Shown piece by piece: positions 11,627 through 43,090 of a stretch of DNA of 64,000 nucleotides. Position numbers and translations under genes: made by a program. Each line of letters starts with the position of its first letter. The first letter of the stretch is position 1. The notes below the pieces were generated by a model. It ran no database searches. It was given only the letters and a program-made list of their open reading frames with translations, and was not told the origin of the DNA. Source of the DNA: an uncultured Chthonomonadaceae bacterium (lineage in GTDB: Bacteria > Armatimonadota > Chthonomonadetes > Chthonomonadales > Chthonomonadaceae); NCBI GenBank assembly GCA_963817895.1, contig CAWFQB010000011.1:256001-320000 (forward strand), in the 5' to 3' direction.

Positions 11627-12886
11627 GTGAAATTTGCATGGGTAGTTTGGAGCGCGGTGCTGGCGCTGACAATAATGAGTCACTGTCACGCGGCGGAAAG
11701 CGGGTTGCGGGGCGCGTCGGGCAAAGTGGACATCACACCGGATAAGCCCGCGTACCTTGCCGGGTATGAGATGAACCGGCTGAGTGCGGGCGTCCATGAC
11801 CGGTTGATGGCGCGGTGTCTGGTTCTGGAATCGGGTGGGGTGAAAATCGTGTTCGTGTCGTGTGACGTGATCGGATTGCCGCGCTACCAGATTGAAAAGA
11901 TACGGGCGGCTATCAAGAGCGTTAAACCCGCGCAGGTTTTCATTGCGGCCACGCATACCCACTCCGCCCCGGACACGCTCGGACAGTGGGGACGCGACCT
12001 GCAAACCAGCGGCGTTGATTCGGAGTGGATGGCGAACTTACGAACGAAAATCGCGTCATTAGTAGAGGATACCGTCGCGCAATGCAAGCCGGTCGCGCTA
12101 AAGTTCGCGACAACGACCGAAGTGCCGCGCATTTCCAAAAACTCGCGCGTCCCGCAAATACTGGATACCGAACTCGGCGTGATGCAGATGGTATCCGCTG
12201 CGGACAACAAGCCCGTCGCCACCCTCGTTAATTATGCCTGCCACCCGGAAATACTGGATACGCGGCAGATTACGGCGGACTTTCCGCACTGGCTGTACGA
12301 CACGGTTGAAAACAACGGGGGCGGCGTTTGCCTGTATTTCAACGGGGCGCAGGGCGGCATGATTACGGCGGATTTTGACGAAACCACCGCGCCCAAAGGC
12401 CAGAACTGGCAGGCGGCGGAAACCATCGGCACAAGGCTTGGCAGGCGCGTTCTGGAAATCATCGCGAACGCGGAAACCGTTCCTGACCCGGCCATTCAAA
12501 CCCAACAGCGCGTGTTTACGGTTCCGCTGGAAAATGCCCGCTTTCAGGCGCTTATCAGCCTGAACGTGTTTCCCGGCGATATGGTGAAAAACAACCTGCT
12601 GGAAACGGAAGTGAATCGCATCACGATTGGGCCGGCGGAGTTTCTCACCCTGCCCGGTGAAGTCCTGCCCAACATCGGCCTGTATCTCAAACACGCCATG
12701 CGGACGGCGGACGGCGGCAAAAATAAGCCCAAATTCCTGCTTGGCCTGTGCAGCGACGAATTGGGCTACATCCTGACGCCGGAAGACTATTTCCTGCCGC
12801 TGTACAAATACGAATCCAGCGTGTCCGTCGGCCCACAAATCGAACCGCTGATGCTACAAAACCTGCTGGCATTGCTGAAGAAATAA
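11627..12886 (+). CDS. Exported neutral/alkaline ceramidase-like metallohydrolase
   Basis: KVDITP..LAGY, GVHDRLMARCLVL, ATHTHSAP, NYACHP, GAQG. Confidence 0.8.
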   Translation: MKFAWVVWSAVLALTIMSHCHAAESGLRGASGKVDITPDKPAYLAGYEMNRLSAGVHDRLMARCLVLESGGVKIVFVSCDVIGLPRYQIEKIRAAIKSVKPAQVFIAATHTHSAPDTLGQWGRDLQTSGVDSEWMANLRTKIASLVEDTVAQCKPVALKFATTTEVPRISKNSRVPQILDTELGVMQMVSAADNKPVATLVNYACHPEILDTRQITADFPHWLYDTVENNGGGVCLYFNGAQGGMITADFDETTAPKGQNWQAAETIGTRLGRRVLEIIANAETVPDPAIQTQQRVFTVPLENARFQALISLNVFPGDMVKNNLLETEVNRITIGPAEFLTLPGEVLPNIGLYLKHAMRTADGGKNKPKFLLGLCSDELGYILTPEDYFLPLYKYESSVSVGPQIEPLMLQNLLALLKK

Positions 12887-39292: not shown

Positions 39293-39397
39293 ACAGAGGA
39301 ATGAAGGTTCATAAAAGCAATACCGGTTTGCTCCGAGTTTGATCTACGCTTCTTGACCGCGAACATATTACAACGCTTCAATATTCTCGGAGGACGT

Positions 39398-40333
39398 ATG
39401 CGAATCACCAGTCGCGCGCCGGTTCGCATTGATTTTGCGGGCGGGTGGACGGATGTAGGCATTTTTGCGCAGGGCGCAGGCGGCGCGGTTGTCAATGCCG
39501 CCATCAACCACTATGTAACCGGAACGCTGGAAGCCCGCAGCGCGGACGAACCCCTTGCTATGTCGCTGCCGTCCGCGCCGGGAATGGCGGAACCGGGCGG
39601 GGAGGGGTTGCGCGTGGCCTATCAATCCGACCTGCCTTCAGGTTCGGGACTTGGCACGTCGTCCGCGCTGAATGTTATCTGGCTCAGTTTGATACGTTCG
39701 CAGATTGACAGCGATGAAGACCGCGCCCACCTTGCCGAACTGGCGTATCAACTGGAATCCATGCTCGGCATTTTGGGCGGCAAGCAGGACCAGTACGCGG
39801 CGGCGTTTGGCGGCTTTAATTCCATGACGTTCGGGGAAACGGTTCATGTGGAGCGACTGGCGATTGCGCCGGAAACGGTAGAAGAACTGGAACGCCGTCT
39901 TGTCTTGTGCTATACGGGCAAGCAGCGTTTGTCCGGCAGCATCCACGAAAACGTGTGGGGCGCGTTTCGCCGGGGCGTTCCTGCCACCGTAAACGCTTTA
40001 TACGCCCTGCGCGAGTGCGCGCATCGGGCCAGAACCGCCCTGCTGAACGGGAATGTAGAGGAACTGACGCAGATAATGAGCGACAACTGGCGGCATCAAT
40101 GCGAACTGGATGCTTCCGTCACAAATCCGCAAATCAGCGGTCTTTTTGAAACAGCGCTGGAAGCGGGGGCGATGGGCGGCAAAGCCTGCGGCGCGGGCGG
40201 GGGCGGCTGCCTGCTGTTTTGCGCCCAATCAGGGAGGCAATCCGCCATCAGTGACGCGCTTGCCGCCGCCGGAGCGCACATCATCCCCTTCCAGTTCGAC
40301 CACACCGGCCTGCAAGTCACGCGGGAAGCGTAA
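39398..40333 (+). CDS. GHMP-family anomeric sugar kinase (HddA/fucokinase-like)
   Basis: RAPVRIDFAGGWTD, LPSGSGLGTSS, GGKQDQYAAAFGG, GKACGAGGGG. Confidence 0.85.
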   Translation: MRITSRAPVRIDFAGGWTDVGIFAQGAGGAVVNAAINHYVTGTLEARSADEPLAMSLPSAPGMAEPGGEGLRVAYQSDLPSGSGLGTSSALNVIWLSLIRSQIDSDEDRAHLAELAYQLESMLGILGGKQDQYAAAFGGFNSMTFGETVHVERLAIAPETVEELERRLVLCYTGKQRLSGSIHENVWGAFRRGVPATVNALYALRECAHRARTALLNGNVEELTQIMSDNWRHQCELDASVTNPQISGLFETALEAGAMGGKACGAGGGGCLLFCAQSGRQSAISDALAAAGAHIIPFQFDHTGLQVTREA

Positions 40334-40341
40334 GAGGAACC

Positions 40342-41850
40342 ATGCAAGTGAACTTACCACAAAACAGAGAAAAGGAGAAAAGGAGAAAAGGAGAAGAGGA
40401 GAGCGAGGTACCGCGAAATAGGCTAAACACACGAAAAGAAACTAAAATACAGTTCGTAGAGCGTTTAAGTTCATTTGCCTGCTCTAATTGTCTTTTGTCT
40501 TTTTTTCGTTTTTTTCGTGTCTTTCGCGGTTTGTTAATTCTCCTTTTCTCCTTTTCTCCTTTTCTCCTCTTCTGTTCGCCGGTACAGGCGGAACTGCGCG
40601 GCGGGGCGGCGAAGGTGGACATAACGCCGGATGTGAAGGCGAACGCGATTCCGCTTGGCGGGTACGCGGCGCGAAAAGCGGCGCGGGCGACGGGCGTACA
40701 CGATCCCGTGTATGCGCGGGCGTTGGCGCTTTCGGACGGCAAGACCACAGCCGTTGTCGTGTCGCTGGATTTGTGCTTTGCGCCCGCGAGTATCAAGGCG
40801 GAAGTGATGAAACGCCTGAAGGCGAATGGCAATGCCACTGTGGACGCCGCGCATCTGTTTCTGGCAGCCACGCACACCCATACGGCCCCCGACCCGCTTG
40901 CCATGCACACGGGCAACACGTTTACCCATCTGAACGGCTGGACGGTTTTCGACCAGAAATTGCTGGACTTTACCGCAGAGAAAATCGCGCAGGCGGTCAT
41001 TCAGGCCGGCAAGGACATGGTTCCGGTTCGTATTGGGGTTGCGACGCAGAACGCGACGGGAGCCAACCGCAACCGGCGCAATGACCCGACCGTTGACCCG
41101 GCCTTTACAACCCTGAAGGTAGCGCGAATTTCGGACGGCAAAACACTGGCGGCAGTCGTCAATTTTGCCGCGCATCCGACTTTGTACGACGATAAGATGA
41201 TGGAGATTTCCGCCGACTGGCCGGGCGTAATGACGGGTGATGTGGAAACAGCGGGAGAAAAGGGCGAAGCGGGGGGCGCGAAAGTGTGCCTGTTCCTCAA
41301 CGGCGCGGAGGGGGACGCTTCCCCGAACGGCGTAGATGATGTGCAGCCTGACGCCAAAGTATCCACGTATGGACACCGCATGGGCAAACGCGCGTTGGAA
41401 GCGTTGGCGGCAGCCGCCGCGCCAACAGATGCGCCGCTTGCAATGTGGACTCAGGCCGTTACCCTGCCGCCGCGCAAGCCCAACGCGCTGTTTTTTCTCG
41501 CCGCCGCGCAGATGGGCGCGACCATGCCACAGGCCAGAGACCTTGTCAACGCGCTCATGCCGACCACTACGGAGATTAATTTTATTCGTATCGGCGACCT
41601 GCTGCTGATGGGGTTTCCGTGCGAACCGACGGGCGACATTGGAATGGCCGCGAAAGCGCTTGCCCGTCAATCCGGTTACAAGGTTCCCGCCGTTGTCGCG
41701 CTCGTCAATGACTGGCTCGCGTATTGCCTGACGCCGCCGCAATACAAAGCCGGAAAGTACGAGGCTGTCATGTCGTTTTATGGCGATCAGTTCGGGCCGA
41801 CACTGTTGGAGGGGGTCAAAACCGGGCTGCTCATGCAGAGCAAGTTGTGA
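40342..41850 (+). CDS. Neutral/alkaline ceramidase-like metallohydrolase with repeat-encoded N-terminus
   Basis: GAGGA RBS; KVDITP, GVHDPVYARAL, ATHTHTAP, NRNRR, NFAAHPT, NGAEGD. Confidence 0.8.
   Translation: MQVNLPQNREKEKRRKGEEESEVPRNRLNTRKETKIQFVERLSSFACSNCLLSFFRFFRVFRGLLILLFSFSPFLLFCSPVQAELRGGAAKVDITPDVKANAIPLGGYAARKAARATGVHDPVYARALALSDGKTTAVVVSLDLCFAPASIKAEVMKRLKANGNATVDAAHLFLAATHTHTAPDPLAMHTGNTFTHLNGWTVFDQKLLDFTAEKIAQAVIQAGKDMVPVRIGVATQNATGANRNRRNDPTVDPAFTTLKVARISDGKTLAAVVNFAAHPTLYDDKMMEISADWPGVMTGDVETAGEKGEAGGAKVCLFLNGAEGDASPNGVDDVQPDAKVSTYGHRMGKRALEALAAAAAPTDAPLAMWTQAVTLPPRKPNALFFLAAAQMGATMPQARDLVNALMPTTTEINFIRIGDLLLMGFPCEPTGDIGMAAKALARQSGYKVPAVVALVNDWLAYCLTPPQYKAGKYEAVMSFYGDQFGPTLLEGVKTGLLMQSKL
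40366..40573. repeat. Nested inverted arrays (GGAGAAAA)n/(TTTTCTCC)n with inner ACCGCGAAA..CACGAAA / TTTCGTG..TTTCGCGGT
   Basis: Outer arms 40366-40401/40538-40573; inner arms about 40410-40447/40501-40530; all in frame within the CDS. Confidence 0.9.
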
Positions 41851-42037: not shown

Positions 42038-43090
42038 CTAATTGGTGGGAACCTGGCTCTGGTCCGGGTAAACCTTGCCATCCAGGTAGTTGGCCGCAAC
42101 GCCGAAGGGATACCACTGGTTCATGCCGCCCGCGCCCTGATGCTTCACCTTGTCGTAAAAATCCACGCCTGTCGGATGGTTGGCGCTGCCGGAAGCCTCG
42201 GTCAGCTTGACATCATAGCCGGTATATGTCTGGCTCGGAATATGCCACTTGACGTGCGTATCGCAATACAGGAAGTTGGAGCCGCCGCCGTGATAGTCCT
42301 GCGGAGCCTGGTACGGCACATTGTCGGTGGAGTATGTGGCCGGGGGTGTGCCGCCCGGAATTCCGCCCGCCTGCACCGCGCCCGCCGCGCCGCAACAAGT
42401 CTGGTTGAAGGGTGTTCCGTAGCGGTTTACAATGGCGTCATACGCGCTGTTCGGGTCTTTGTCCATCTCCTGCGCCGCTTCGTAAAGCAGAATCAGGTTG
42501 GTTGCCTGCGCGGTCAGGTCCGGGTTGAATGGCGAGTAGTTGCCCGGATCGGAGGCGCAGCCTTTCGCTATGCCGCAGTCCGTTGATTTCTGGTAGGGAC
42601 TGTTCAAGGGGCCAAGCCAGCCGACTTGAAGATACTGATTCATCACGTAGTTCTGGCCGGGGGGCTGCGAGCCGAACCCGGCGACATTACTGCGGCGAGT
42701 AGCGGCATCGGGGCAGGCCCAGACATTGGAAGAGCCGCCGTTACCCCGCTGCTTGACGTAGGGGCCGATACCGCCCGCGTCCACATACGAGCCGCCGTTG
42801 TAGTAGCCGATTACCCACGTCGGGCTGTAGTTCGACGGCCCGGTGTAGGTTGTATTGGTAATGGGCATGGGGTAGCCGCCGTCGTAGTCCTGCGCATACA
42901 GCGTGAAGGCGGTTCCCATCTGCTTGAAGTTGGATTGGCAGCTTGCCTGCCGCGCTTTTTCCCGCGCCTGCGCAAACACGGGAAAGAGTATCGCGGCTAA
43001 AATCGCGATGATAGCGATAACGACGAGCAGTTCGATAAGCGTAAACGCGCTTCGGCCTGCGCCTGCTGATTTTTGAATGCTTCTGGACAT
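42038..43090 (-). CDS. Prepilin-type DUF1559 protein (H-X9-DT-H variant)
   Basis: [51 protein letters not shown]. Confidence 0.93.

Follow-up and report, generated by a model that had tools for sequence, protein, structure and literature searches.

A palindromic element inside a ceramidase-like gene

The 64,000-nucleotide (nt) stretch analysed here, hereafter the window, belongs to the genome of an uncultured Chthonomonadaceae bacterium (assembly GCA_963817895.1, contig CAWFQB010000011.1, positions 256,001 to 320,000 of the forward strand) and contains a gene for a ceramidase-like hydrolase whose 5' coding end harbors a palindromic repeat element. The gene lies behind a GHMP-kinase gene whose TAA stop occupies 40331-33, with the ATG at 40342 starting 8 nt later as read directly from the sequence, and its open reading frame (ORF) of 502 codons, held in the same form in the NCBI and ENA gene calls, traverses the whole element (Table 1). 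The mature protein has a match in PF04734, the neutral/alkaline ceramidase N-terminal domain family (117.9 bits for the ORF against a curated cut-off of 32.1), and has orthologs across the Chthonomonadaceae and other Armatimonadota, but only the N-terminal half of the family profile is aligned (positions 4-258 of 509). An earlier reading of the letters, the first-pass annotation, had pointed to a GAGGA ribosome-binding site, to this ATG and to a frame passing without a stop through the repeats, and the sequence and the ORF bear out all three. The same is the case for its statement that a paralog at 11627 has an ordinary 23-aa signal peptide, with an N-terminus reading MKFAWVVWSAVLALTIMSHCHAA and then ESGLRGASGKVDITP.

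The outer arms of the element pair over 35 nt with 94% complementarity, including a perfect core of 29 nt, and the inner arms pair over 45 nt with 73% complementarity. Where two nested inverted repeats had been proposed, both arm pairs are indeed present, but they constitute a single element with a two-part terminal inverted repeat and not two insertions: about 80 nt on each side comprise an octamer array, with just 3 to 4 units at this locus, and a conserved inner block. Full copies elsewhere in the genome have the same two-part inverted repeat. The RNA fold of the element reaches -108.3 kcal/mol as against -67.0 +/- 4.5 in 200 shuffles, none of which was as stable (z -9.2); its strength is far beyond chance. 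No Rfam family matches the element at or above its gathering score, and the matches to plant microRNA hairpins were set aside as generic-hairpin noise (50 bits versus a gathering score of 211). No direct repeat that might represent a target-site duplication was seen in the flanks of the ceramidase copy, a systematic search across copies not having been made. A scan of the region returned no promoter-like sites, and two terminator-like sites as compared with 1.5 expected. The purine arm at 40368-40402 is also a run of AAGGAG motifs that resemble Shine-Dalgarno (SD) sequences, and its partner arm resembles an anti-SD sequence.

The arms are free of stops in all frames because the all-purine arm is without T and the all-pyrimidine arm without A or G. 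The 136-nt interior is open in one of the three forward frames, namely that which joins ATG 40342 to the mature part, and this frame is open in 1223 of 20000 mononucleotide shuffles of the interior (0.061).

Table 1. Features of the ceramidase locus (positions in the window) and in-frame elements in other genes of the genome (contig-prefixed positions)
Feature	Position	Strand	Remarks
GHMP-kinase gene, upstream	39353..40333	+	PF00288 E 1.5e-11; PF08544 E 2.8e-11
GAGGA, SD-like	40334..40338	+	direct reading; 3 nt ahead of ATG, short spacing
Ceramidase-like hydrolase ORF, 502 aa	40342..41850	+	PF04734 E 6.2e-34, aa 88-330
Leader, 83 codons	40342..40590	+	residues 9-77 wholly element-encoded; M1-N8 and S79-A83 flank
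Palindromic MITE-like element, ~210 nt	40365..40574	.	ends CAGA...TCTG
Outer 5' arm, (GGAGAAAA)n	40368..40402	+	translation EKEKRRKGEEE
Inner 5' part of terminal inverted repeat	40410..40454	+	ACCGCGAAA..CACGAAAAGAAAC block
Inner 3' part of terminal inverted repeat	40486..40530	+	translation SFFRFFRVFRG (predicted basic n-region)
In-frame TTG, codon 52, possible internal start	40495..40497	+	Ser in sister assembly P0003
In-frame TTG, codon 64, possible internal start	40531..40533	+	no SD-like site ahead
Outer 3' arm, (TTTTCTCC)n	40539..40573	+
Predicted c-region CSPVQA	40573..40590	+	V at -3, A at -1 before E84
Predicted mature enzyme	40591..41847	+	begins ELRGGAAKVDITPD; start conserved in relatives
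Paralog, 419 aa	11627..12886	+	35% identical; ordinary 23-aa signal peptide
ValRS, locus L130	C1:907697-907800 and C1:908668-908791		two different in-frame palindromic elements
IlvD, L131	C5:424241-424305		in-frame palindromic tandem-unit element
PriA, L155	C4:164556-164685		in-frame palindromic tandem-unit element
MetRS, L157	C4:611097-611173		in-frame palindromic tandem-unit element
Acetyl-CoA synthetase, L165	C6:162484-162562		in-frame palindromic tandem-unit element

The predicted signal in the leader

The leader reads MQVNLPQNREKEKRRKGEEESEVPRNRLNTRKETKIQFVERLSSFACSNCLLSFFRFFRVFRGLLILLFSFSPFLLFCSPVQA and then ELRGGAAKVDITP, and may also be written as MQVNLPQN-REKEKRRKGEEESEVPRNRLNTRKETKIQFVERLSSFACSNCLLSFFRFFRVFRGLLILLFSFSPFLLF-CSPVQA followed by ELRGGAAKVDITPD, with the codons for N8 and C78 each straddling one end of the element. 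That its C/T-rich 3' arm encodes FFRFFRVFRG-LLILLFSFSPFLLF ahead of VQA and the mature start, as had been claimed, is evident on reading the sequence. The prospective hydrophobic (h-)region LLILLFSFSPFLLF is encoded by 40531-40572, i.e., 40531-40538 together with the outer 3' arm, and is the sole hydrophobic stretch ahead of the conserved mature start, whereas the six codons for CSPVQA are those of the signal that are not made of repeat DNA. In this genome nothing but CSPVQA separates the element from the start of the mature part, which leaves the 3' arm as the sole possible source of a hydrophobic core.

By hand metrics, this region displays the features of a Sec-type signal with its n-, h- and c-regions: three Arg in FFRFFRVFRG, an uncharged core, and V and A at positions -3 and -1. 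The best 10-residue hydropathy of the leader is 2.46, as compared with 2.2-3.5 in nine reference leaders with a clear core and 0.75 in a tenth, which has 11 residues; the leader also contains a 21-residue uncharged run, and residues 53-63, just ahead of the core, include three basic and no acidic ones. On these grounds, the leader is predicted to export the enzyme. Whichever frame is taken, (TTTTCTCC)n translates as a rotation of FSPFLLFS and (GGAGAAAA)n as one of GEKEKRRK; therefore, by virtue of the 8-nt unit and the genetic code, an in-frame copy on either strand always reads charged and then hydrophobic.

Leaders of the orthologs

Of the 41 genomes of the order that were searched, 37 have a relative; the upstream frames were read for the 20 best ortholog loci, and ten were folded. 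Many of these 20 loci code for an ordinary signal peptide of 19-30 aa that ends just before the conserved AELRAGAAKVDITPD (e.g., MFRIASFFLAVVAMTALLTGSPCA, MRNIKFRTFALLTALLILAGTREAR and MRILCLIALLLCSVFPAN), including short leaders that end in A directly before AELRAG or a similar start (e.g., at L034, L035, L038, L040 and L048). The enzyme is therefore expected to be exported. An alignment of orthologs had been proposed at the outset as a check, and in the comparison made here many related genomes have ordinary signal peptides at that position. For the mature part, dN/dS is 0.155, 0.178 and 0.177 against the orthologs of G002 and G001, which are of the same genus as this genome (G000, 7.48 Mb), and G021 of another genus, respectively; these values indicate that the gene is under purifying selection.

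A further comparison is offered by an independent sister assembly (P0003), in which an 853-kb contig carries the same element in the same frame with the same ATG. The leaders are identical at 65 of 83 residues, the differences comprising 17 substitutions and one extra residue, and the mature parts at 218 of 232. The peptides of the h-region and the purine arm are unchanged; the c-region, FFAITAKA, differs from that of G000 and is still A-x-A-like. The frame through the element has been kept across this divergence.

The two congeners present further variants of the same theme. In G001 an intact gene of 491 aa begins with MFVFPFRLFRVFRGSFSVCCLSSAVLLCAASPIVKA, where codons 3-28 of the leader consist of a solo 3' arm (77% to the copy at C14:648605 over 71 nt) with neither a 5' partner arm nor a hairpin, and a stop stands one codon ahead of the ATG. 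This arm-derived leader without a hairpin is the best sign that the peptide, and not the structure, is kept. A transposase-like gene lies upstream of this ortholog. G002 has an element of a second family at this place, whose pyrimidine-rich arm codes for the leader core ILSVTPLCLCVSVV, the element having CTTTCACCACAGAGACACAGAG ends and 97.7% identity over 43 nt to a G000 copy at C12:9240. In other genera, G021 and G011 have their own, different palindromes in frame between an upstream ATG and a native-looking core. The leaders of the three congeners may go back either to one ancestral composite insertion or to repeated insertions, and the native core may either have been deleted at insertion or lost later. 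When the flanks are joined they encode no hydrophobic core in G000 or G002, and the ancestral leader that preceded the insertion is therefore not recoverable.

The element family and its presence in other genes

The element stretch matches 91 places in G000, and a pattern search recovers 181 arrays of at least two GGAGAA[A/G]A units, with 2 to 6 units per array. Among the adjacent array pairs listed, 22 of 25 are convergent, i.e., a purine array followed by a pyrimidine array, at distances of 21-222 nt. The fifteen copies that were folded and read share a common design of an octamer array, the block GGGAACCGCGAAACACACGAAATAAACGAAAAAAGGACAAAAA or a similar one, a variable center, and a mirror block with its array; solo half-elements are common too. 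Within the genus, the 90-nt 3' arm is matched 33, 39 and 9 times in its three genomes; there is one match in one other genome and none in 22 further relatives searched, so that, save for this single match, the family appears to be confined to one Chthonomonadaceae genus. With terminal inverted repeats, short length, no coding capacity of its own and many copies in the genome and its close relatives, it resembles the MITEs (miniature transposable elements with inverted repeats).

More broadly, 730 palindromic loci are found in G000 when a locus is required to have 8 or more inverted 11-mer seeds on a single diagonal, separated by no more than 400 nt. They are built from various tandem units of 7-9 nt, for instance AGGTTGTT, CAGGATTAA, AAGGATG and CACAGAGA. 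Behind a single octamer array there is often an array of heptamers, such as (TACGAGA)n, (TTCATCC)n or (CTCAACT)n. The genome also has three Y1_Tnp (PF01797) loci, one of them with an internal TAG, at C1:1366786-1367142, C5:223662-224000 and C2:68237-68578.

Of the palindromic loci, 45 of the 730 sit in open frames that reach at least 80 codons to each side, and 25 such frames were searched against Pfam. Domains span the palindrome or flank it on both sides in 11 of the 25, on one side in 6 and on neither in 8. The 11 genes code for valyl-tRNA synthetase (ValRS), which has two separate elements, dihydroxy-acid dehydratase (IlvD), PriA, methionyl-tRNA synthetase (MetRS), acetyl-CoA synthetase (Acs), a PSCyt2/PSD1 protein, two BTAD-NB-ARC-TPR regulators, an AAA_35 protein, a PMT_2 glycosyltransferase and an NB-ARC protein. 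At the first ValRS site, 5 of 11 aligned relatives are without an insert and pass directly from WWT(E/D/K/L)(D/E)G to the (R/K)(Y/H/C)..A segment. G000 has here an insert of 46 residues derived from a GGAGAAAA-type palindrome; between WWTE and VRxFGxRR the inserts of the three congeners all differ from one another, and all 11 aligned segments are stop-free with a length that is a multiple of three. Since ValRS is essential and single-copy, ribosomes must read through such elements. A crude screen for other repeat-built leaders in G000 gave 7 candidates of 125; it missed the ceramidase locus and is hence unreliable.

Origin of the leader and alternative explanations

The explanation we favor, with a probability of roughly 60%, is that the DNA of the element serves as the core of a working Sec-type signal that is read through from ATG 40342. 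Under it, a non-coding MITE-like palindrome would have come to sit in the 5' coding end of the gene for a secreted enzyme, and translation would start at the conserved ATG and run through the entire element, with the purine arm read as the charged stretch EKEKRRKGEEE and the pyrimidine arm as a basic and then a hydrophobic stretch. Together with the remaining native c-region, the arm peptide would form a signal of the n-h-c type that is cleaved before ELRGG. The native hydrophobic core seen in the orthologs is gone here, so the DNA of the element would now do the job of that core. It is likely that we have here a small hairpin repeat that encodes the core of an export signal, a piece of selfish DNA turned into a working protein part. 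The proposal of the first-pass annotation that repeat DNA was exapted as the export signal or replaced it stands insofar as the sole sequence resembling n- and h-regions is encoded by the 3' arm, the function being a prediction from the sequence. Translation most likely begins at ATG 40342, which is the only candidate start with an SD-like site and has the position relative to the upstream gene of the ancestral start.

Several observations weigh against this explanation. The spacing from the SD-like site to the ATG is just 3 nt, and the conserved ATG of G002 does not share the frame of the mature part. A leader of 83 aa, 62 of which make up a highly charged N-terminal extension, is unusual for a Sec signal, this pre-core stretch having 15 basic and 8 acidic residues. 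Two T7 runs inside the inner 3' part (40500-06 and 40509-15), along with single-base frame errors in the assemblies of the group, render the frame upstream of 40516 less certain than that of the h-region. Thus, the G002 ortholog (L031) has one extra base at CCC(G)G at about 2630, and P0003/P0002 represent one ceramidase gene split into products of 333 and 198 aa. These breaks, and the completeness of 81% of G000, though it is in 14 contigs, suggest insertion/deletion errors in these assemblies. Despite the distance to the congeners (dS 0.8-1.3), the hairpin has remained almost perfect, and a recent insertion not yet put to the test would look the same. Further, the paralog with its normal signal peptide could cover a loss of function, and there is no enrichment of open frames among the palindromes genome-wide, with 318 of the 730 closed in all six frames.

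One alternative is an internal start at TTG 40531 or TTG 40495, whereby the 5' half of the element would remain untranslated and a signal of 20 or 32 aa would still be encoded by the 3' arm. A start at TTG 40495 would yield M-SFFRFFRVFRG-LLILLFSFSPFLLF-CSPVQA, a textbook n-h-c layout; the G001 gene must begin within its solo 3' arm, given the stop ahead of its ATG, and a canonical leader of 22 aa would result in G021 from a TTG immediately behind the element. However, neither TTG is preceded by an SD-like site, the region is without a promoter-like site, and both codons are within the 3' side of the -108 kcal/mol stem; codon 52 is Ser in the sister assembly, a start at TTG 40531 would dispense with a basic n-region, and the sole open frame of the interior is the one connected with ATG 40342. 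An internal start is accordingly rated as unlikely. Still less probable is that the insertion destroyed the native signal and that the leader is non-working, with the enzyme unexported or poorly made, or the gene decaying. The nearly perfect arms, as in a recent insertion, the very long and charged leader, the presence of a paralog with a normal leader and the downstream frameshift in each of the G002 and sister-assembly orthologs would fit such a gene. Yet the 420-aa mature frame is intact with dN/dS of 0.16-0.18, a second assembly, with 14 differences among 232 mature residues, has kept the same insertion in frame, and G001 retains an arm-derived leader without a hairpin in an intact gene, whereas the frameshifts are probably single-base differences typical of long-read assemblies.

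The octamer arrays might also act, compatibly with the read-through explanation, as a slipped-strand on/off switch like that of the opa genes of Neisseria, in which a gain or loss of one 8-nt unit shifts the frame. The unit length is no multiple of three, the arrays stand between the ATG and the mature part, their length differs between loci, and the passages on opa in PMC3960869 provide a precedent. This is nevertheless a very improbable role here: G000 and the sister assembly have the same arm peptides, with no difference in copy number, the locus has few units, the same arrays occur in essential genes such as ValRS where an off state would be harmful, and no population reads bridge the element at the locus. 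An assembly artefact is the least credible of the explanations, and we give it hardly any weight. Repeats do attract misassembly, and in public sequencing runs, none of which contained more than 0.15 of the sampled words, short-read contigs aligned from four runs heap on the octamer arms (summed depth up to ~1260 versus ~2-10 on most flanks) and end there, none of them bridging the element. However, the second assembly encodes the same leader on its 853-kb contig with its own substitutions and extra residue, so that the element is no artefact of one assembly, and related elements are at the same place in the congeners.

Parallels with known repeats and implications

A parallel might be struck with the Rickettsia palindromic elements (RPEs), in-frame palindromic repeats translated inside protein genes (PMC10969869, citing Ogata et al. 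2000). In the sections of that review devoted to them, these are likewise short, non-autonomous, multi-copy palindromes in frame in unrelated genes, including housekeeping enzymes, and translated (PMC10969869). The elements of G000 similarly have stop-free in-frame copies in genes whose relatives lack them (11 of 25 frames; 5 of 11 relatives for ValRS), a likeness in behavior. They differ from RPEs in that the host of the latter has a reduced intracellular genome as opposed to a free-living Armatimonadota genome of 7.5 Mb, in that their arms consist of octamers in tandem and show a strict purine/pyrimidine asymmetry, and in that the signal core supplied by the element is a predicted functional module and no surface loop. 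The (CTCTT)n repeats of the Neisseria opa genes are likewise pyrimidine-only units, not divisible by three in length, and lie in the leader-coding part (PMC3960869, in its account of opa). However, according to the same account, they form a simple array without an inverted partner, belong to no dispersed mobile family and are a proven phase-variation switch (PMC3960869), whereas no copy-number variation is seen between G000 and its sister assembly.

ERIC, BOX and the Anabaena MITEs share with the present elements a small size, terminal inverted repeats, lack of coding capacity, a high copy number and occasional in-frame intragenic copies, as presented in the corresponding parts of PMC10969869; the present elements differ in that no target-site duplication was seen in the flanks of this copy and in that solo half-elements are common. 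The term "signal peptide" is absent from the text of that review (PMC10969869). Thus, as far as these parts of the two sources extend, in-frame palindromic repeats (RPEs and intragenic ERIC, BOX and Anabaena MITEs) and pyrimidine repeats in a leader-coding region (opa) are already known. A search of the full-text literature found neither a description of these elements in Armatimonadota or Chthonomonas nor anything on a signal peptide derived from a MITE or an RPE.

REP/BIME elements are moved by RAYT (Y1) transposases, and the cyanobacterial STRR elements are heptamer arrays; both are likewise dispersed hairpin-forming or short tandem repeats that are mostly intergenic, with REPs being much shorter than the present element. 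We know of no STRR arrays that occur as palindromic pairs or are coding. Y1-transposases are possible movers of the hairpin repeats of G000.

A broader proposal, which we put forward tentatively and hold at somewhat below even odds, is that the native signal has been overwritten in three ways within the genus, by an intact hairpin in G000, by an arm of the second family in G002 and by a solo arm in G001. The elements might then be seen as ready-made export or membrane-anchor modules, charged and then greasy, that could be a general source of signal peptides in repeat-rich bacteria, with the octamers potentially adding a frame switch. Under the favored explanation, the leader of G000 would by itself be a clear and datable case in which mobile non-coding DNA of a bacterium gave rise to a functional protein module, an export signal. 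Three stages of this process seem to be preserved among the relatives: an upstream element with an intact native signal (G021, G011), an arm that replaces the core (G000 and G002) and, in G001, a solo arm that is domesticated. Beyond this gene, a heavy colonization by in-frame palindromes, known mainly from Rickettsia, is also found in a large free-living Armatimonadota genome, where it extends to aminoacyl-tRNA synthetases. Such repeats lengthen predicted proteins and can mislead the annotation of start codons and signal peptides in metagenome-assembled genomes.

Neighboring and similar genes

The downstream neighbor of the ceramidase-like gene, on the minus strand at 42038..43090, combines a prepilin-type N-terminal methylation domain (PF07963) with DUF1559 (PF07596), a type of protein that is common in Armatimonadota and Planctomycetota. 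A minus-strand ORF of 227 aa (40317..41000) traverses the whole element, which is thus open in one reverse frame too, and is probably no gene. Elsewhere in the genome, an OppC/DppC-type permease gene (L133, C1:1438970-1439134) has a 165-nt element of the same octamer type between its ATG, which overlaps the upstream stop (TAATG), and the OppC_N domain, making it a second gene with an element directly after the start codon.

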